Of a stretch of 64,000 bases of DNA, positions 8,743-42,079 are shown one piece after another. The number at the start of each line of letters is the position of its first letter. Positions within the stretch are counted from its first letter, which is position 1. Source of the stretch: Candidatus Magasanikbacteria bacterium GW2011_GWA2_37_8. GTDB lineage: Bacteria > Patescibacteriota > Patescibacteriia > Magasanikbacterales > GWA2-37-8. The notes below the pieces were generated by a model. That model made no database searches, was not told the DNA's origin, and was given only the letters and a program-made list of their open reading frames with translations. The stretch spans positions 1,498 to 65,497 of the forward strand of contig LBTN01000012.1 in NCBI GenBank assembly GCA_000992085.1. Reading direction: 5' to 3'. The position numbers and the translations under genes are program-made.

Positions 8743-9909
8743 ATGTTCACTTTGATTACTTTTATTATCGTTTTGGCTTTGTTAGTTTTTTCTCACGAGT
8801 TTGGTCATTTTATCGTTGCGCGTAAAAATGGAATCAAAGTAGAGGAATTCGGTTTTGGTTTTCCACCTCGATTATTTGGGGTGCAATATAAGCCAGAACA
8901 AAAGAAGTTTATTTGGATATTTGGTAACCGCGATTTAACCGAAGAAGAAAAAGCTGACGACACAGTCTATTCTTTTAATTTGGTACCACTAGGTGGTTTT
9001 GTAAAAATTAAAGGTGAAGATGGCGAAGCGCCGCTCGCTCCTGATAGTTTTGGAAGCAAACCAGCTTGGCGTAGAGCGTCTGTGTTGGCTGCTGGAGTAG
9101 CAATGAATATAATTTTGGCTGCTGTTTTATTATCTGTTGGTTTTATAATAGGAATGCCACAGGTTGTAGACGACGGCGCTGTGGTAGCAGTGCGTGATCG
9201 CCATTTAACTATTATTCAAGTTTTGCCAGACACTCCAGCCAAAGTAGCTGGTTTAGAAAGCGGTGATAAAATTATCCAAATTGGCGAGTTGAATAATCCA
9301 GAGGTAACAGCCATGCAAGATTATATTAATAGTAATAAAGATCAAACTTTATCAATTACCGTTAAGCGTGGCGAAGAAGAAATTAAGAAAGAAATCAAAC
9401 CAGTTATTTACCCTGATACTGGTAAAGCAGGCATCGGAGTAGCAATTGCAACGGTTGGTTTGGTTAAATATCCTTGGTATCAAGCTATTTACGAAGGTAT
9501 AAAAGCTACCGGCTGGTATTTGAAAGAAATTATTGTGGCTTTTTATGGGTTAATCTCTGCTCTAGTGGTAGGCAAAGGTGTGTCTTCTGCTGTTTCTGGG
9601 CCAGTAGGTATAGCCACCATGACGGGTGAAGTAGCCAGATTAGGTTGGTCTTATCTATTGCAATTTACGGCGATGTTATCTTTAAATTTGGCAGTACTAA
9701 ATATTTTGCCAATTCCAGCTTTAGACGGTGGACGTTTGTTGTTTTTAGTCATTGGTAAAATTAGGCGTCGGCCAATTTCTACTAAAGTTGAACAAGTAAT
9801 TCACTCGGTTGGTTTTATGCTGTTAATGTTATTAGTAGTAATTATTACAGTTAAAGATTTGCGTGTTTTTGAAGGCGCTTTTTTTCATTTTATTAATCGT
9901 TTATTTTAA
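8743..9909 (+). CDS. rseP: RIP metalloprotease RseP (site-2 protease, M50) with PDZ domain
   Basis: 388 aa. HEFGHF zinc motif at the N-terminus, central PDZ-like segment (GLESGDKIIQIG), C-terminal NILPIPALDGG motif. Confidence 0.85.
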   Translation: MFTLITFIIVLALLVFSHEFGHFIVARKNGIKVEEFGFGFPPRLFGVQYKPEQKKFIWIFGNRDLTEEEKADDTVYSFNLVPLGGFVKIKGEDGEAPLAPDSFGSKPAWRRASVLAAGVAMNIILAAVLLSVGFIIGMPQVVDDGAVVAVRDRHLTIIQVLPDTPAKVAGLESGDKIIQIGELNNPEVTAMQDYINSNKDQTLSITVKRGEEEIKKEIKPVIYPDTGKAGIGVAIATVGLVKYPWYQAIYEGIKATGWYLKEIIVAFYGLISALVVGKGVSSAVSGPVGIATMTGEVARLGWSYLLQFTAMLSLNLAVLNILPIPALDGGRLLFLVIGKIRRRPISTKVEQVIHSVGFMLLMLLVVIITVKDLRVFEGAFFHFINRLF

Positions 9910-9912
9910 TAT

Positions 9913-10500
9913 ATGCATACTAATCGCGGGGCACTGGGATTAGAGGGGAGACCGGTTTTTGATCAAGAAAAATGTGTAGAAAATGATTTAACAGAACAGC
10001 AGTTAGAGATTTTGAAGCAAGTTAGGCCACGGTTAGATTTAGTGTTAAACACTAAAATGGCTATAAAAGAATTTCCTGAGGATAATTTAGAAGAAAACGG
10101 AGTTTTAAATGGTTTTTCTAATCCAGAAATGCAAGCCAAGGCGGCGGGAGATTTGCCAGGTTTTTTTGACGAACAATTAGAATCTAGATTTTTTGATTTA
10201 GATAGTTATGTTAAAAATTTGGGTAGTAGAGACAGTTTAGATAAAATAAGACAGTTTTTTAGCCAGTTTGATAGAGAGGGATCGGTAGTAAAGGAGGATG
10301 AGTTGGAAGAAAAATACAGAGATTTAGAAATTATTTATTTATCTTTACGTAACCGAATTTTATTATTAAAAGAAGTTATTTTACAAATCGAAAATAAAGT
10401 TAGTGATTATTTAAGACTCGAGATTACTATGCCTAAACATGGTAGTACGCAGCTTGTTTATAATGCTGGTAATGTTTGGAATAATTTAGTAAAACACTAA
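9913..10500 (+). CDS. Hypothetical protein
   Basis: 195 aa acidic ORF between rseP and pheS. No motif recognised. Confidence 0.4.
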   Translation: MHTNRGALGLEGRPVFDQEKCVENDLTEQQLEILKQVRPRLDLVLNTKMAIKEFPEDNLEENGVLNGFSNPEMQAKAAGDLPGFFDEQLESRFFDLDSYVKNLGSRDSLDKIRQFFSQFDREGSVVKEDELEEKYRDLEIIYLSLRNRILLLKEVILQIENKVSDYLRLEITMPKHGSTQLVYNAGNVWNNLVKH

Positions 10501-10503
10501 AAT

Positions 10504-11550
10504 ATGCAAGATAAATTATTACAATTAAAAACTAATGCTTTAGCTGCGATTAAATTGGTTAAAGATAAAGCCCGGCTAGAAGAAATTGAAAATAAATTAT
10601 TAGGGCGAAAGAGTGGAGAATTAACCGAGTTATTAAAAGGTTTAAAAGAATTAGCAGCCGATACTCGTAAAGTTGTTGGTCAAATTGCTAATGAAGTAAA
10701 AACTGAAATTGAATCGGCTTTACAAGAAAAACAACAAGAATTATCCACCAGTAGTTGGGCAGACGCTTTAGAAAAAGAGCGGGTAGATATTACCCAGCCA
10801 GCATTGCCGGCGGCAGAATATGGCCACTATCATCCCAACACTATTGTTCAACGTGATTTGGAGGATCTTTTTACGGCAATGGGTTTTATGGTACTAGACG
10901 GTCCAGAATTAGAAAGTGATTATTATAATTTTACCGCAGTAAATATCCCTGCTACTCATCCAGCTAGGGATATGCAAGATACTTTTTATATCAAGGGTCA
11001 TGGCCAAAATTCGGATTCGCCTTGGGTGATGCGCACGCATACTTCTACTATGCAAGTACGTTCGCTTCAGAAGTATGGTACCCCGCTTAAAATGATTGTG
11101 CCAGGAAAATGTTATCGTAACGAAGCCACTGATCCAAGGCATGAACATACCTTTTATCAGCTAGAGGGCATGGTGATTGACAAAGGAATTACTTTTTCTC
11201 ATTTAAAGGGTGTATTAGAGGCGGTAGCCAAACATTTATACGGCGAAGAGACTGAAGTTCGTTTAATGCCTAAATTTTATCCATTTGTAGAACCGGGTGT
11301 ACGTGGTGAAGTAACTTGTTTTTTGTGTAAGGGTAAGGGCTGTCGTTTGTGTAAAAATAGTGGCTGGTTAGAAATCTTTGGTGCTGGTATGACCCATCCT
11401 AATGTTTTAAAAGAAGGTGGTATAGACCCGAATGTTTATCAGGGTTTTGCTTTTGGTTTTGGATTGACCAGACTAGTAATGCTAAAATACGGTATTAGTG
11501 ATGTTCGTCTTTTAGAAAGTGGGGATTTAAGATTTTTAGAACAATTTTAA
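10504..11550 (+). CDS. pheS: Phenylalanine--tRNA ligase alpha subunit
   Basis: 348 aa. Class II motifs (HPARDMQDTFY, FRNE-like CYRNEATDPRHEHTFYQLEG, GFAFGFGLTRL), immediately followed by pheT. Confidence 0.95.
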   Translation: MQDKLLQLKTNALAAIKLVKDKARLEEIENKLLGRKSGELTELLKGLKELAADTRKVVGQIANEVKTEIESALQEKQQELSTSSWADALEKERVDITQPALPAAEYGHYHPNTIVQRDLEDLFTAMGFMVLDGPELESDYYNFTAVNIPATHPARDMQDTFYIKGHGQNSDSPWVMRTHTSTMQVRSLQKYGTPLKMIVPGKCYRNEATDPRHEHTFYQLEGMVIDKGITFSHLKGVLEAVAKHLYGEETEVRLMPKFYPFVEPGVRGEVTCFLCKGKGCRLCKNSGWLEIFGAGMTHPNVLKEGGIDPNVYQGFAFGFGLTRLVMLKYGISDVRLLESGDLRFLEQF

Positions 11551-33838: not shown

Positions 33839-33877
33839 AATACCCCCGACATTTATATGTTGGGGGTATTGTTTTTT
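33839..33877 (+). terminator. Intrinsic terminator after tsf
   Basis: aataccccc / gggggtatt 9-bp stem followed by gtttttt. Confidence 0.65.
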
Positions 33878-35271: not shown

Positions 35272-36270
35272 ATGACAAATATCGCAATTAATGGTTTCGG
35301 CCGTATTGGCCGGCAGGCTTTTAAAGCTGCTTTTAAGAACAAAAGAATTAAAATTGTTGGCATTAACGATTTAACCGACACCAAAACTTTGGCACATCTT
35401 TTGCAATATGATACCGCCTATGGTAAATATGAATTGCCAGTAACATATGATGAAAAAAATATTATTGTTAAAGGCAAAAAGTTTCCAGTATTTGCCGAAA
35501 AAGATCCAAGTTTCTTGCCTTGGAAAAAATTAAAAGTAGATGTGGTTTTGGAATGTACTGGCCGATTTACCAATAAAGCCGGCGCAGAATTGCATGTAAA
35601 AGCTGGGGCGAATAAAGTAATTATTTCTGCTCCATCAAAAGGTCCTGAAATTCCAACTTATGTGCGATCGGTTAATTGTGGTAAAGTAGGAAAAGAAAAA
35701 TCATTAGTTATTAATAATGCTTCTTGTACCACCAATTGTATTGCCCCAGTAATGGCAATTTTGGATGAAAAATTTGGTATTGAAAAAGCTATGATGAGTA
35801 CAGTACATGGATATACTGCCGATCAAAATTTACAAGATGGCCCACACAAAGATTTGCGTCGGGCACGGGCAGCTGCAGAAAATATTGTGCCCACCACTAC
35901 CGGAGCTGCTAAAGCAGTGGGGGAGGTAAAAACAAATTTACAAGGTATCTTTGATGGTGTAGCTTTTCGCGTGCCAGTGCCTACTTGTTCATTATCAGAT
36001 ATTACCGCAGTTTTAAAAAAGAATGTTACTAAAGAAGAAATTAACAAAGCTTTAATCGATGCCGCCAAAACTGCTCGTTTCGCCGGAGTACTAGATGTAA
36101 CTTTTGAACCACTGGTTTCTTCAGATTTTGTAGGTAATAGTTATTCTTCGATTGTTGATGCCAGCCTAACTAACGTAGTGGGTGGAAATTTGATAAAGGT
36201 AGTTGCTTGGTATGATAACGAATATGGCTATGCCCATCGTTTAATAGAAATGGCAGAATTATTTGCTTAA
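35272..36270 (+). CDS. gap: Glyceraldehyde-3-phosphate dehydrogenase
   Basis: 332 aa. INGFGRIGR, active site ASCTTNC, WYDNEYGY. Confidence 0.95.
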   Translation: MTNIAINGFGRIGRQAFKAAFKNKRIKIVGINDLTDTKTLAHLLQYDTAYGKYELPVTYDEKNIIVKGKKFPVFAEKDPSFLPWKKLKVDVVLECTGRFTNKAGAELHVKAGANKVIISAPSKGPEIPTYVRSVNCGKVGKEKSLVINNASCTTNCIAPVMAILDEKFGIEKAMMSTVHGYTADQNLQDGPHKDLRRARAAAENIVPTTTGAAKAVGEVKTNLQGIFDGVAFRVPVPTCSLSDITAVLKKNVTKEEINKALIDAAKTARFAGVLDVTFEPLVSSDFVGNSYSSIVDASLTNVVGGNLIKVVAWYDNEYGYAHRLIEMAELFA

Positions 36271-36279
36271 TAGTTTATT

Positions 36280-36618
36280 GTGTTAGAATATATCCATCAA
36301 AATTTGGTCGCTGGATGGTGGTTTGAATTAACTTTGGCAGAACAACTAGGGAATGTTGGAAGTGAGGTTGGTAGAGCGGTAAAATGGCATAATAAAAATA
36401 ATTTTAAAAACCGCAATTATGCATTAGACAGAGCGTTTGAATTACTTGATTTGACGATTTTGGATGAACGTTGGCGCGGTGTTAAGTTAAAAGAATTGTG
36501 TCGTGTGCGCGAGTTGTTGGCTGATACTTTTTATGGCGACAGAGAATATCACGACACGCCAGAGAATTTAGAAAAATATTTTTATCAATTTGCTTTGGCG
36601 GCGAGAATAAGTATTTAA
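36280..36618 (+). CDS. Hypothetical helical protein (first gene of a 3-gene cassette)
   Basis: 112 aa, GTG start. Vague resemblance to all-alpha MazG-like NTP pyrophosphohydrolases (LAEQLGNVGSEVGRAV ... LDRAFELLDL), but the acidic metal ligands are not conserved, so no call is made. Confidence 0.35.
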   Translation: MLEYIHQNLVAGWWFELTLAEQLGNVGSEVGRAVKWHNKNNFKNRNYALDRAFELLDLTILDERWRGVKLKELCRVRELLADTFYGDREYHDTPENLEKYFYQFALAARISI

Positions 36619-36620
36619 TT

Positions 36621-37580
36621 ATGTTCAAAACAGTCATCTTAAAATTAATTAACATTAAATATTCTGGCAATTCAATTGGCAACGATGTTCGTGTAGAAAT
36701 TAATGCGCTAAATAATTTTATCAGTGTTGACAAAAAAATTAAGAAAGGACAAAGTGTCGCGTGTCAAGAAACAGTTGGACAATTTTTTGTGGATGGTAAG
36801 TTTTTTAATCCGGAGATAAAAATTACTGTTATTGAAAAAGATTTGTTTTTTAATGATGTTGGAAGTATTTCGGTAAAATTAAAAATAGATTTGGAAAAAA
36901 ATACTACTCAAATTAATAAATGTCAGGTGGAAGTTTATGAAAAGCGTGGAAGAAAAAAAACAAAGAGTAAGCGTGGAGTGTTTGATTTAACATTGGAACC
37001 GACCGTTAAGACGCCTTTCGTTTATGTTCCGGAAACAAAAGATGGTTGGCTAGTTGTTCTGGATAGAAATGGTGAAGAAGTTTCGTTGCCGTCGTATCTC
37101 AAAGTGGAAGTGAAACGTCGAGAGTTAGGGCGCGAATATTTTACGATTTTAGAAGGTGCATTGCGTGGAGGAGAATATTCAGTTAAGTGTCCAGATGATA
37201 TTTCAGTTTTTATGATTAACGACAATCATCACACCAAGCTGGTGCAGGTTACTTACTCAATATCAAATAAAATTTTATGTTTGTCCGATAAGAAATATCA
37301 AACTACTGATTATGAAGGCGCGCCTTGGGTTAAAGGTTTGTATGATATAGAGATCCCAGATTTTCCTCATCCGGGAGGTTTGTATTATGATAATGCCAAA
37401 AATCCGACAGTATGGTTTCGTGTCGGCCATAGCGGTGAGCGTTATATCCATACCGGTCGTCATTCTTTAGGTTGTATTACTGTATTAGACCAAAAGAAAT
37501 GGGGAGAAATTTATAATATATTGATTAGAGCACGCAAAGGTGACGGCCAAAGCATCGGAGTATTAGAAGTTATTGAATAA
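36621..37580 (+). CDS. Protein with C-terminal L,D-transpeptidase-like (YkuD/DUF2778-like) His...Gly-Cys motif; no signal peptide
   Basis: 319 aa. The C-terminal GLYDIEIPDFPHPGG...WFRVGHSGERYIHTGRHSLGCITVLDQKKWGEIYNIL resembles the IH...S-x-GC(I/V) catalytic signature. The N-terminal 230 aa are unrecognised. Confidence 0.45.
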   Translation: MFKTVILKLINIKYSGNSIGNDVRVEINALNNFISVDKKIKKGQSVACQETVGQFFVDGKFFNPEIKITVIEKDLFFNDVGSISVKLKIDLEKNTTQINKCQVEVYEKRGRKKTKSKRGVFDLTLEPTVKTPFVYVPETKDGWLVVLDRNGEEVSLPSYLKVEVKRRELGREYFTILEGALRGGEYSVKCPDDISVFMINDNHHTKLVQVTYSISNKILCLSDKKYQTTDYEGAPWVKGLYDIEIPDFPHPGGLYYDNAKNPTVWFRVGHSGERYIHTGRHSLGCITVLDQKKWGEIYNILIRARKGDGQSIGVLEVIE

Positions 37581-37581
37581 T

Positions 37582-38097
37582 ATGAAAGTAATTTACATTA
37601 AAATTGTTATAATATTAGCAATGACAATCGCGATAGCAACATTTGTGACGTGGCATTATCCATTTGGCGTAAAAAGCTACAAAGGTATAACGTTTGGTAT
37701 GGATACATTTGAAAAAGCTGGAGAATCCACCGGCTGGGCTTCGCCTGATGATCGTGTTCCAACCTCTAGTTTTTATGTACGCGCTTTCGGAGATGAATCT
37801 TTTTGTATTGGCTCGATGTGTGGTATAGGTGGATATTTTGTTGATTGTCTAGGTGGTTGGATTTCGGCTTATAGACAAGCGCAAATGTTAGATGATAGTA
37901 TTGATTTATCAATAGAAGATGTTGCTTCTGGGAAAGAGCTGGTGGTTACAGTTGCCAACGCCAACGGTAAAATTGTTGGCATTTATCCAGGCGCTCGAGT
38001 TAGAAATTTGCCATATATTTTGCGCAATCACCGTGATTTAATAGACGTGGAGAAATGGCAAATGTGTTCTAATATTTTGCCACGATGGTGGAAATAA
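37582..38097 (+). CDS. Membrane-anchored hypothetical protein (candidate cognate partner of the preceding gene)
   Basis: ORF track starts at TTG 37573. The ATG at 37582 (MKVIYIKIVIILAMTIAIATFV = signal anchor) comes 2 nt after the upstream stop. Confidence 0.4.
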   Translation: MKVIYIKIVIILAMTIAIATFVTWHYPFGVKSYKGITFGMDTFEKAGESTGWASPDDRVPTSSFYVRAFGDESFCIGSMCGIGGYFVDCLGGWISAYRQAQMLDDSIDLSIEDVASGKELVVTVANANGKIVGIYPGARVRNLPYILRNHRDLIDVEKWQMCSNILPRWWK

Positions 38098-38115: not shown

Positions 38116-39504
38116 ATGCGTATTCCAATAATCGAAACAGTCGGTAAGGTGGGTGTTGAGGTAATTTTAAAAGGATGGGTGAATGCCAGACGTGATATGG
38201 GCAAGATTGTATTTTTGGATTTGCGCGATCGTTCGGCGGTGGCGCAAATTGTTGGCGTGCCAGCCGAAATGGATGAAAAATCTTTGGAAGAAATAAAACG
38301 TGTGCGTTTAGAATACTTGGTGGAATTACGTGGTATTGTGCAGGCTCGTAGTGAGAAACAAAAAAATCTCGAGATGCCAACTGGTACAATAGAAATTTTA
38401 GTTAAAGAAATAAAAATTATTTCTGAATCACAAGCCATGCCATTTGATGTTAGTCAAGATACACGCATAATTAGTGAGGAACTTCGTCTTAAATATCGTT
38501 ATTTAGATATTCGCAGTGAGCGTCTAAAAAAGAATTTGGAAATGCGCCACAAGATGAACCAGTTTTTACGTAATTATTTAACTGAGAAAAATTTTTGGGA
38601 GATTGAAACCCCGTATATTACCAAAGGCACGCCCGAAGGTGCGCGTGAGTTTTTGGTACCATCCAGATTACATCCCGGTAATTTTTATGTGTTACCGCAA
38701 TCGCCACAACAATTTAAACAGTTATTAATGGTAGCAGGAGTAGAAAAATATTTCCAAATTGCCAGATGTTTTCGTGATGAAGACAATCGTGGCGATCGTC
38801 AGCCAGAGTTTACTCAACTTGATATGGAAATGTCGTTTTTAGAAGAAAAAGATATAAGAAGTTTGATCGAAGAAATGACAATCGAATTAGTAGAAAAAGT
38901 TTTTCCACATTTACATATTTCACAAATACCTTTTCCAGTTTTAACTTATGCTGAAGCAATGGAAAAATATGGTAACGATAAACCAGATTTAAGAAAGGAC
39001 AAAAAAGATAAAACTGAATTAGCTTTTGGTTGGATAGTAGATTTTCCTTTGTTTGTAAAAAGTGAGACCGATGATTGTTTGGTGGCGTCCCACCATCCTT
39101 TTACACGACCACAAGATAGTGATTTAGAATTGCTTGATACTGCACCAGAAAAAGTAAAAGCCTGTGCTTATGATCTTGCTTTAAATGGTTTTGAAATTGC
39201 TGGTGGGAGTCTTCGTATTTTTGATCACGCTTTGCAAAAAAAGATTTTCCAAATTTTGGGTGTATCTGAAGAAGATATTAATATTCGCTTTGGTCATATA
39301 CTTGAAGCTTTTACCTTTGGTGTACCTCCACATGGTGGTATTGCTTTTGGTTTAGATAGATTAATCGCCATACTTCAAGGTGAAGAAAATATCCGCGAAG
39401 TAATTGCTTTCCCCAAAACCGGCGATGCTAGAGATCTAATGATGGGTGCACCAAGCACATTGCCAGAGCAAGCTTTAAAAGATGTGCATATTAAGTCAAT
39501 TTAG
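38116..39504 (+). CDS. aspS: Aspartate--tRNA ligase, bacterial-type core lacking the GAD insertion domain
   Basis: 462 aa. OB-fold N-terminus, motif 2 FRDEDNRGDRQPEFTQLDMEMSF, motif 3 GGIAFGLDRL. The sequence goes from YGNDKPDLRKDKKDKTELAFGWIVDFPLF directly, where E. coli AspRS has about 130 extra residues. Confidence 0.9.
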   Translation: MRIPIIETVGKVGVEVILKGWVNARRDMGKIVFLDLRDRSAVAQIVGVPAEMDEKSLEEIKRVRLEYLVELRGIVQARSEKQKNLEMPTGTIEILVKEIKIISESQAMPFDVSQDTRIISEELRLKYRYLDIRSERLKKNLEMRHKMNQFLRNYLTEKNFWEIETPYITKGTPEGAREFLVPSRLHPGNFYVLPQSPQQFKQLLMVAGVEKYFQIARCFRDEDNRGDRQPEFTQLDMEMSFLEEKDIRSLIEEMTIELVEKVFPHLHISQIPFPVLTYAEAMEKYGNDKPDLRKDKKDKTELAFGWIVDFPLFVKSETDDCLVASHHPFTRPQDSDLELLDTAPEKVKACAYDLALNGFEIAGGSLRIFDHALQKKIFQILGVSEEDINIRFGHILEAFTFGVPPHGGIAFGLDRLIAILQGEENIREVIAFPKTGDARDLMMGAPSTLPEQALKDVHIKSI

Positions 39505-39522: not shown

Positions 39523-39807
39523 ATGTTATCTGCCCTGCAAATAAACATTTTAAAGGAGTGTTATGAAAACAGGGGAAAAATTAATCGTCGTATATTTTTA
39601 CGGTTATACAAAGACAAAAAAACCAAAACCACACCTGTAAAAATTATTACCCAAAGTTTAGAACGCTTGATTCGTCGGGGGTATATTATTGGTTATTGTG
39701 TACACAAATCGGACAAGTGTTTTATAAGCGATATTAAAATTACCGCTCTTGGCAAACATACCTATGAAGATTGGTGGGAGAAGAGGCAAGCAAAATTACC
39801 ATTTTAA
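39523..39807 (+). CDS. Small hypothetical protein (possible winged-helix)
   Basis: 94 aa basic ORF. No motif recognised. Confidence 0.35.
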   Translation: MLSALQINILKECYENRGKINRRIFLRLYKDKKTKTTPVKIITQSLERLIRRGYIIGYCVHKSDKCFISDIKITALGKHTYEDWWEKRQAKLPF

Positions 39808-41137: not shown

Positions 41138-42079
41138 ATGTCAAAAAAATTATTTGATTTTATTTCTTCTTTTGGGATGATGCTGGTCGGCGTTTTTTTA
41201 TTATTCGCGAACACAGTTTCTTTTTCTCCGACTGGTCGACAGTGGTTAAAATTACCAGTGTCTAATCCCCGACAATTGATAGGTGGTGATGCGATCGCCG
41301 AAAATTTGCCGGTTTTGCGTCCTACTGTTCCTTTGCAGAAAAATAAAAATAATTTTGTCGGAGTGTTAACTGCTCAATCGGTTATAGTGGTAGATAACAA
41401 GACAGAAGCAGTTTTGTTCGAGAAAAATAGCGACGCAATTCGACCTCTAGCCAGTGTAACCAAATTGATGAGTGCTTTGGTACTATTAGATTTACCAATA
41501 CAATGGTCTACTACCACAGAAATTTTTGAGACTGATGATGTTGGTAGTAGCCATATTATTAATGCAGGAGAAAAATTTACTGCTGATGATTTATGGCATG
41601 TAGGTTTAATTGGCTCATCTAATAGTGCTATTAATGCCTTGGTAAGAATTAGCGGTTTAACTCCTACTCAATTTGCAGCACGAATGAATCGAAAAGCACG
41701 TGATTTACAATTAACTTCTGCTCATTTTGTAGAGGCTACTGGTTTAGATGCAGATAATATTGCCAGTGTACGTGATGTTGCCAAACTTTTAAAAATTGCT
41801 TTACAAAAAGACAAAATATTACAAACAGTGCAAATTGGTGAATATTATATACATCCTTTAGGTAAAGATAAGCCACGACGAGTATGGAGTACCGATTGGC
41901 TTTTAACTAAGTGGGTTCCGAGTAATTTTACTGTATCTCAGATTGCTGGTAAAACGGGTTTTATTAATGAGTCTGGTTATAATTTTGCGGTACATTTAAG
42001 TGATAATAATGGTCATGCGGTGCGTGTTATAGTTTTTGGTGCGTCTACCAACGAAAATCGTTTTATCTATGAATATTAG
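41138..42079 (+). CDS. D-alanyl-D-alanine carboxypeptidase (serine peptidase S11, PBP5-like)
   Basis: 313 aa. SxxK (ASVTKLM), SxN (SSNS), KTG (GKTGFI). N-terminal TM. Confidence 0.75.
   Translation: MSKKLFDFISSFGMMLVGVFLLFANTVSFSPTGRQWLKLPVSNPRQLIGGDAIAENLPVLRPTVPLQKNKNNFVGVLTAQSVIVVDNKTEAVLFEKNSDAIRPLASVTKLMSALVLLDLPIQWSTTTEIFETDDVGSSHIINAGEKFTADDLWHVGLIGSSNSAINALVRISGLTPTQFAARMNRKARDLQLTSAHFVEATGLDADNIASVRDVAKLLKIALQKDKILQTVQIGEYYIHPLGKDKPRRVWSTDWLLTKWVPSNFTVSQIAGKTGFINESGYNFAVHLSDNNGHAVRVIVFGASTNENRFIYEY

Follow-up and report, generated by a model that had tools for sequence, protein, structure and literature searches.

Our results suggest that the genome of Candidatus Magasanikbacteria bacterium GW2011_GWA2_37_8 carries, between the housekeeping genes gap and aspS, a two-gene module (here called B-C) that probably encodes a toxin and its immunity protein, of the polymorphic-toxin or bacteriocin type. 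The module lies in a window of 64,000 nt (the whole stretch of DNA that was analysed; contig LBTN01000012.1, positions 1,498-65,497, forward strand). A previous reading made from the sequence alone had described three genes at this site (A, B and C) as one accessory cassette, in which B resembled L,D-transpeptidases (Ldts) and C occupied the place of an immunity gene. The three open reading frames (ORFs), their packing (at most 2 nt apart with the ATG at 37582), the housekeeping flanks and the quoted motif all hold: A and B are separated by 2 nt and B and C by 1 nt, all of them are on the same strand inside the gap-aspS interval, and none is a chance ORF, since A, B and C have families of 634, 275 and 168 full-length homologues, respectively. 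The cassette itself has to be reduced to two genes. Since B and C alone recur together, and in relatives A lies on the other side of them or is absent, B and C make up the unit, and A is a separate gene, resident in the Magasanikbacteria lineage. The features of the module, in window coordinates, are as follows:

36621-37580, + strand: gene B, coding for a leaderless three-domain protein of 319 aa, the predicted peptidoglycan-targeting effector.
36621-37010, + strand: N-terminal domain of B (N-domain, residues 1 to ~130), a C2-like beta-sandwich (Foldseek TM score, on the target, ~0.5).
37011-37235, + strand: middle domain of B (residues ~131-205), a small beta domain that accompanies the catalytic domain in short-form relatives and in those fused to extracellular contractile injection system (eCIS) domains.
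37236-37577, + strand: catalytic domain of B (residues ~206-319), a YkuD-fold, Tlde1-like predicted cysteine peptidase domain.
37449-37475, + strand: predicted active-site segment of B, H277-T-G-R-H-S282-L-G284-C285 (translation checked).
37582-38097, + strand: gene C, the predicted immunity protein, of 171 aa if read from the ATG and 174 aa if read from a TTG at 37573.
37591-37647, + strand: membrane anchor of C (residues 4-22), its sole hydrophobic segment, with a Kyte-Doolittle 19-residue mean of 2.48 and preceded by Lys residues.

In support of the two-gene unit, B and C alone recurred together across 34 genome and metagenome loci, and the other flanking families were present in at most six loci each. 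The pair was found in differing housekeeping neighbourhoods across classes of the candidate phyla radiation (CPR). C was located downstream of B in every look-up begun from B, and the distance from the B stop codon to the first ATG of C was -1 to +9 nt in nearly all loci. Moreover, when the census was anchored on C (one genome per species, 30 loci), B was present directly upstream in 23 loci, three contained just a 3' remnant of B beside an intact C (L007, L019 and L021), and the remaining four carried an orphan C among housekeeping genes, with no B (L022, L024, L031 and L035). In L007, the closest relative, the gap-aspS interval keeps a 55-aa remnant of B fused after gap, together with an intact C that is 79% identical. 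Among related genomes, this same interval holds zero modules (a remnant), one or two.

The partner of B can also be replaced. In the census anchored on the N-domain, which covered 73 B-type genes from metagenomes, C was adjacent in 33 cases, the contig ended in 11, and in the other 29 an unrelated membrane-anchored partner was encoded at equal spacing. These alternative partners were of three types, of ~245 aa (25 loci), ~216 aa (3 loci) and 72 aa (1 locus), each with one N-terminal membrane helix. The possibility that B can occur without a partner was rejected, as it was these unrelated genes that were found in the place of C. One member of the ~245-aa type gave a weak, sub-threshold match to PdaC/DUF4163 (E 0.005), and the ~216-aa and 72-aa partners gave no profile matches. 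Examples of each type, all directly downstream of B-type genes, are:

L085:1014-1754, a partner of the ~245-aa type.
L071:996-1643, a partner of the ~216-aa type.
L121:4459-4674, the 72-aa partner.

The tight coupling, the orphan copies and the swap for non-homologous proteins of like topology support that gene C behaves like an immunity gene, as its position downstream of B had led the sequence-only reading to propose. Of the outcomes that this reading had named as refuting it, none was observed. From its sequence, C is predicted to be a single-anchor extracytoplasmic protein. Its homologues (168, of ~175 aa) have four invariant cysteines (C75, C80, C89 and C162) in a well-conserved predicted external domain, and the deltaproteobacterial homologue carries a lipobox-like FLSIGC signal in place of the anchor. 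No relative of C outside its own family was identified in Pfam, PDB or PADLOC. Note that the orphan C of L031 (3881-4456) has a CxxC...CxxC zinc-ribbon-like extension instead of the membrane anchor; a wrongly called start, a fusion or a cytoplasmic form of the protein might each explain it.

We next consider gene B. Its 275 full-length homologues are all ~320 aa long and 44-69% identical, and this exact protein has already been deposited, as hypothetical, from Candidatus Magasanikbacteria GW2011_GWA2, in keeping with the reduced and probably episymbiotic host that had been proposed. A prior description of the B-C module was not found in the literature searched. Neither B nor C matched a Pfam, NCBIfam, PADLOC or PHROGs model at threshold; the weak profile matches obtained in the searches of A, B and C (Phage_1_1, DUF3139, QhpG and DnaJ) were dismissed as noise, and PDB sequence searches with B and with the profiles of its catalytic domain, its N-domain, C and A returned nothing or noise (zinc finger, uL15, caspase-6). 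The AlphaFold model of the whole of B (pLDDT, the predicted local distance difference test, 89.8 from a 40-sequence alignment) is all-beta over its first ~230 residues and mixed alpha/beta in the C-terminal remainder. The whole-chain Foldseek search was dominated by the C2-like N-domain (C2 domains over ~130-140 columns, E 2e-5 to 1e-3, with LdtMt2 at rank 7), and the catalytic domain was resolved only after residues 200-319 had been excised. Modelled alone (pLDDT 88.1), these residues matched YkuD-fold structures in 50 of the 50 PDB matches listed (E 1.3e-5 to 2e-3, TM score on the query ~0.6), including LdtMt1, LdtMt2, LdtMt3, Bacillus subtilis YkuD (1y7m) and Escherichia coli DpaA. The L,D-transpeptidase-like fold that had been suggested for the C-terminus was therefore recovered by structure prediction and search. 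A search of a viral structure library gave three uncharacterised phage proteins and nothing else, and was uninformative.

The C-terminus of B carries ...GLYDIEIPDFPHPGG...WFRVGHSGERYIHTGRHSLGCITV..., and the translation of 37368-37475 is HPGGLYYDNAKNPTVWFRVGHSGERYIHTGRHSLGC. Within it, the (S/T)-x-G-C-hydrophobic motif with a conserved upstream His is present as S282-L-G284-C285-I. H277, S282, G284 and C285 are invariant in the B proteins of all partner classes; in the wider domain family W265, F266, G279, G284, C285, W294 and R305 are invariant, and H250 and H277 are at least 90% conserved. Two His residues had been flagged as possible catalytic residues together with the Cys. H270 was rejected, as it is F or Y in many members, and because C285 and H277 are conserved in the wider family while H270 is replaced, we read C285 as the likely nucleophile and H277 as its partner residue. 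The canonical Ldt motif has been described as H-x-x(14-17)-(S/T)-H-G-C (PMC9638812). This spacing is not found in B, where H277 is 4 residues, and the unconserved H270 11 residues, before S282. hhalign comparison with five E. coli YkuD proteins placed RHSLGCITVLD on RVSHGCVRLRN of LdtB, with C285 opposite the Ldt catalytic Cys; canonical YkuD membership is not claimed, as the Cys motif was all that aligned and the match was too weak.

The relatives of the domain point to a specific family. Searched exhaustively with HMMER, the catalytic-domain profile recovered 460 cluster representatives, 294 of them below 1e-10. When 70 diverse related domains, each isolated, were compared with Pfam, 42 matched Tlde1_dom (PF10908, formerly DUF2778) at E<=1, with a best value of 4.2e-7, and 11 matched YkuD (PF03734) at the same cut-off, with a best value of 1.3e-4. 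Among full-length representatives, a Tlde1_dom match at E<=1e-3 was obtained in 4 of 148. In the window protein, the region matched to Tlde1_dom is the active-site segment (residues 276-305, on profile positions 79-113 of 120). From the structural model and these profile comparisons, the catalytic domain of B is read as a divergent member of the YkuD superfamily, putatively sister to Tlde1, that reaches no curated threshold. The YkuD/DUF2778 likeness first noticed in the letters of this C-terminus thus holds for the fold and at the level of the family, where the relatives match; the window protein itself falls short of the profile threshold.

The fusions of the catalytic domain are also those of toxins. 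An N-terminal eCIS_core (DUF4157) domain is present in 20 of the 148 representatives, and Amidase_3, OmpA, SLT, Peptidase_C70, HepT-like and DUF5675 were each seen in a single fusion. The catalytic-domain profile recognised proteins of the eCIS_core architecture at E ~1e-20 to 1e-26. One of these fusions, P0439, is encoded inside a complete contractile-injection locus (Pvc16_N, AAA ATPase, CIS_tube, Phage_GPD, Phage_base_V, DUF4280 and gp25), in which no dedicated immunity gene was seen adjacent to it. DUF4157 is a marker of eCIS toxins, and EAT6, which combines it with a predicted L,D-transpeptidase domain, is antibacterial in E. coli (PMC8213781).

The N-terminal 230 aa of B, initially described as unrecognised, resolve into the C2-like module and the middle domain. 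Sequence searches of Pfam and PDB gave no relative of the N-domain. It carries a conserved acidic cluster (D22, E72, D74, N78 and D79), for which Ca2+-dependent surface binding might be speculated. The N-domain is not restricted to B. In L040, a relative of the window genome, the gap-aspS interval is organised as gap-B1-C1-X-B2-C2, where X (9530-11200), a protein of 556 aa, is 54% identical to the B N-domain over its first ~130 residues (E 9e-50) and has an SLT lytic transglycosylase domain at its centre (Pfam E 3.7e-16). The N-domain is likewise fused to SLT at L042:3501-5162, with a weak SH3_3 hint; the two fusions, 555-556 aa long, are encoded beside B-C modules. Because the N-domain is also found on these SLT proteins, B is made of a common N-terminal module joined to one of two or more warheads that cleave peptidoglycan. 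The mosaic typical of polymorphic toxins is seen on both sides: the N-domain is found on a Tlde1-like or an SLT C-terminus, and the catalytic domain behind eCIS_core, Amidase_3, OmpA, SLT and others. Note that no obvious immunity gene follows the L040 SLT fusion, the next gene being B2. Other forms of the N-domain were a protein of 270 aa (L069:522-1331), with a different C-terminus, of 136 aa, and ORFs of ~125 aa that consist of the N-domain alone (L099:2045-2422 and L115:1909-2283).

No other part of B varies as much as the middle domain, which accompanies the catalytic domain in its relatives: those from a Bacillus plasmid, from two viral contigs and from an eCIS locus align to B from about residue 133-142 to the end. 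The plasmid and viral relatives are stand-alone middle plus catalytic forms of ~200 aa, without the N-domain. The one on Bacillus wiedmannii plasmid pFCC41-4-144K (L039:5974-6567, CT694_34615) lies upstream of a type IA topoisomerase, and one of the viral forms (L123:7968-8579) lies beside a serine recombinase; neither is accompanied by a C-like gene.

Tlde1, found in Salmonella and other Gram-negatives, is a type VI secretion system (T6SS) L,D-carboxypeptidase/transpeptidase effector whose catalytic residues are H121 and C131 and whose motif is S-H-G-C; its action against peptidoglycan is proven, and its immunity protein is periplasmic (PMC9638812). B-C resembles Tlde1/Tldi1 in its YkuD-derived fold, in the His...S-x-G-C motif with short His-Cys spacing, in having Tlde1_dom as the closest Pfam family for relatives of the B domain, in the predicted extracytoplasmic protein encoded directly downstream, and in the predicted target, the peptide stem of peptidoglycan. 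Unlike Tlde1/Tldi1, B-C has no T6SS association, its catalytic domain is below the family threshold, B has an extra 200 aa (the C2-like N-domain plus the middle domain), the C family has no detectable known relative, and the hosts are CPR bacteria. With eCIS toxins such as EAT6 of Parafilimonas terrae (PMC8213781), the relatives of the B domain share the DUF4157 plus L,D-transpeptidase-like architecture, EAT6 having been compared by description only; B itself, in contrast, has no eCIS_core domain and no eCIS genes nearby. The canonical YkuD Ldts (PF03734; LdtMt2, YkuD, E. coli LdtA-E and DpaA) have the same fold, with the catalytic Cys in an S-x-G-C-hydrophobic motif, and in LdtMt2 the catalytic domain is likewise preceded by two beta-sandwich domains. 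In contrast to them, B lacks a PF03734 match, a signal peptide and a lipobox, has a much shorter His-Cys spacing, is mobile, varies in its presence and has an immunity-like gene as its partner.

B-C would work like Tlde1/Tldi1 and the DUF4157-linked toxins. It is a demonstrable member of neither: its scores stay under the Pfam cut-offs, neither a T6SS nor an eCIS is associated with it, its architecture differs and its partner family is new. What is new here is a divergent catalytic subfamily, an N-terminal module and several candidate immunity families, all concentrated in CPR bacteria.

A layout similar to that of B-C is known from bacteriocins. Colicin M/Cmi and pesticin/Pim are leaderless multi-domain toxins with a C-terminal wall-targeting domain, encoded adjacent to a membrane-anchored immunity protein with its bulk outside. 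These toxins use outer-membrane receptors and Ton/Tol import in Gram-negatives. The likeness to B-C is one of layout, as a functional analogy, with no relationship in sequence or fold.

If B-C is a toxin-immunity module, it could work as follows. The C2-like beta-sandwich (residues 1-130) would be a targeting or trafficking module, which CPR bacteria would combine with different peptidoglycan-cleaving warheads. Residues ~131-319, the middle domain plus the YkuD-fold, would form a Tlde1-like cysteine peptidase, with C285 as nucleophile, H277 as general base, and S282 and G284 as part of the S-x-G-C motif. By analogy with Tlde1, we infer the substrate and the reaction: B would attack peptidoglycan at its peptide stems, either as an L,D-carboxypeptidase or through an L,D-transpeptidase-type exchange of the terminal D-amino acid, so that cross-linking would be blocked and the wall of a neighbouring or host cell weakened. 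C would be made from the same transcript as B, probably via translational coupling, and be anchored in the membrane of the producer, with its conserved four-cysteine domain outside, near the wall, where it may bind and block B or otherwise shield the producer's wall.

Several results weigh against this interpretation. The toxicity of B, its binding and blocking by C, with the resulting protection, and the export of a leaderless B are all inferred, and export is the main weakness. B has neither a signal peptide nor a recognised secretion or trafficking domain (Pfam, NCBIfam, PHROGs and hydropathy), and it has no hydrophobic segment (maximum Kyte-Doolittle 19-residue mean 0.62), as the sequence-only reading had also noted for the signal peptide. 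Genes of a T6SS, a type VII secretion system (T7SS), an eCIS or a phage were seen neither in the window (25 of its 87 Pfam families listed) nor in the CPR contexts. At the level of the enzyme, the H277-C285 spacing, of 8 residues, is shorter than in the canonical motif; Tlde1a was not among the 50 structural matches listed; the window domain matched Tlde1_dom with E 0.23 and 12.3 bits, below the gathering score of 30.1; B gave no match to Pfam PF03734 at E<=10; and the profile-profile likeness of B to canonical Ldts was limited to 11 columns, with a probability of 9.5%. B proteins with different partner types hardly differ in catalytic-domain identity (0.59 vs 0.62), so partner specificity is not obviously encoded there. 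The mirror-tree comparison of B and C (r 0.66) does not discriminate either, because co-inheritance alone explains it. In addition, B-C is apparently co-transcribed with housekeeping genes, without its own terminator or a distinct promoter, which would also fit a housekeeping enzyme.

In such an enzyme reading, B would be an atypical L,D-transpeptidase/carboxypeptidase that remodels the cell's own peptidoglycan, and C and its analogues would be membrane-anchored partners that recruit, export or regulate it on the outer side of the membrane. The YkuD fold, a three-domain layout that recalls LdtMt2, the place of the module among consecutive housekeeping genes, from which no promoter or terminator signal sets it apart, the lack of delivery machinery nearby and the wide distribution in CPR bacteria, which have few annotated wall enzymes, would all suit it. 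We nevertheless consider it unlikely. A resident enzyme would not be expected to be as patchy as B, with 0-2 copies in one interval of close relatives and at least four in one deltaproteobacterium, nor to have its partner swapped for unrelated proteins. That C stays intact where B has decayed is the reverse of what a C serving only B would lead one to expect. Moreover, the nearest sequence family and the fusion partners are toxins, and B lacks the signal peptide that resident periplasmic or extracytoplasmic enzymes normally have.

The distribution of the module bears on two further explanations. 'Deltaproteobacteria bacterium TL4' carries at least four paralogous B-type genes that are 71-83% identical. 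At the two TL4 loci examined (L001:4960-7856 and L041:1343-5236), B-C is located amid Phd/PIN, PemK and MNT/HEPN genes, and one of the TL4 B-C loci is also beside a DDE transposase fragment, on a contig with large polyketide synthase (PKS) genes. These TL4 copies are evidence of transfer outside the CPR bacteria. B had no tblastn match in 50,697 phage genomes, and among the 2.9 million viral contigs of IMG/VR the catalytic domain was present in two (both without the N-domain) and C in none. No T6SS genes were present in any of the B-C contexts examined.

The phage and viral searches speak against a phage-derived lysis cassette, in which B would be a leaderless endolysin and C a class-III-type holin that gives it access to the wall, for example for the release of particles or DNA. 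T4 holin T, of class III, has one N-terminal helix and a large external domain, and the order of a leaderless predicted peptidoglycan hydrolase followed by a single-helix membrane protein would be that of a lysis cassette. Holins are non-homologous and interchangeable, which would account for the partner swapping, and short forms of the enzyme do occur on two viral contigs and a plasmid. We regard this explanation as very unlikely, however: besides the missing B in phage genomes, and a domain that in viral contigs is all but lacking and never accompanied by the N-domain or C, there are no phage genes near B-C in the contexts examined, an orphan C makes little sense for a holin, and a lysis cassette transcribed constitutively along with gap and aspS, as B-C apparently is, would be lethal. 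An intracellular toxin-antitoxin or abortive-infection module, in which B, once freed from control, would hit cytoplasmic wall precursors or another substrate and C would be a membrane sensor or antitoxin, is highly improbable: the deltaproteobacterial company of PIN/Phd, PemK, HEPN/MNT and transposase genes, the multi-copy, mobile behaviour and the lack of an export signal in B would favour it, but A, B and C have no PADLOC match at E<=10, C and the alternative partners are predicted to lie mostly outside the membrane, unable to neutralise a cytoplasmic toxin, and the relatives of the B enzyme act on the assembled wall. Each of these three explanations accounts for some features of B-C and is harder to reconcile with the orphan C, the external topology of the partners, the toxin affiliations or the missing phage context.

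Returning to B-C as a toxin-immunity module, we tentatively advance a further idea. The C2-like N-domain might be a leaderless delivery or targeting module of a kind not recognised before, with which CPR (Patescibacteria) cells would direct interchangeable peptidoglycan-cleaving warheads (a Tlde1-like peptidase or an SLT transglycosylase) against the walls of hosts or competitors, working without T6SS, T7SS, eCIS or Sec signals, and with each warhead lineage neutralised by one of several unrelated membrane-anchored immunity proteins. If this were true, the module would represent a new route of effector export or targeting, and a candidate tool of the episymbiotic lifestyle.

The CPR (Patescibacteria) represent a large share of bacterial diversity, and many of them live attached to other cells. 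Their means of breaching cell walls, or of competing for them, have hardly been characterised at the protein level. The B-C module is common, its homologues numbering in the hundreds and spread over many CPR classes, yet it is entirely unannotated. Its divergent YkuD-fold domain ties these bacteria to the world of Tlde1 and eCIS toxins. The module also offers testable objects: a new catalytic subfamily with a compact His/Cys site, at least four unrelated candidate immunity families, and a new N-terminal module, without a known export signal, that is borne by two kinds of wall-cleaving enzyme. Should the toxin-immunity interpretation be true, reduced genomes that lack classical injection machines would use a wall-targeting effector-immunity logic, and annotation would gain new handles, four new protein families included.

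The genes surrounding the module are the following:

35272-36270: gap, which flanks gene A on its 5' side.
36280-36618, + strand: gene A, with a GTG start, 112 aa.
38116-39504: aspS, which flanks gene C on its 3' side.

Gene A belongs to a large, highly conserved CPR family (634 homologues, 55-79% identity), whose invariant residues include W14, Q22, G24, N25, G27, S28, E29 and R32. No relative of A was identified in Pfam, NCBIfam, PADLOC (E<=10) or PDB (searched with the A profile). Among the loci compared, its homologues are confined to those of Magasanikbacteria, where A is downstream of C, beyond a DUF5674 gene, or is absent. The three-gene cassette A-B-C was rejected because A is unlinked to B-C outside the Magasanikbacteria.

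The 25 listed of the 87 Pfam families of the window are housekeeping only (tRNA synthetases, glycolysis, DNA polymerase III, S2 and EF-Ts), and the base-composition profile did not reveal a compositional island at A-B-C. In the promoter and terminator scan, counts were equal to those of shuffled sequences, with no operon boundary inside gap-aspS. The sole strong intrinsic-terminator-like hairpin of the region, a 14-bp stem followed by a T tract, is located directly after tsf (33839-33870, + strand), so a single transcription unit may run from 33907 to aspS and include gap, A, B and C.

Finally, two neighbours deserve a brief mention. An ORF of 94 aa (39523-39807, + strand) lies between aspS and scpA, its 3' end overlapping the scpA start, and L040 and L005 each have an ORF of comparable length at that place (96 aa and 82 aa, respectively), the comparison being of position and size only. 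Further downstream, 41138-42079 (+ strand) encodes a membrane-anchored protein of 313 aa with an S-V-T-K motif, by eye a candidate D-alanyl-D-alanine carboxypeptidase, which suggests that the window organism makes peptidoglycan. A gene that resembles this candidate by eye is found at L035:2735-3727, upstream of the orphan C of that locus.

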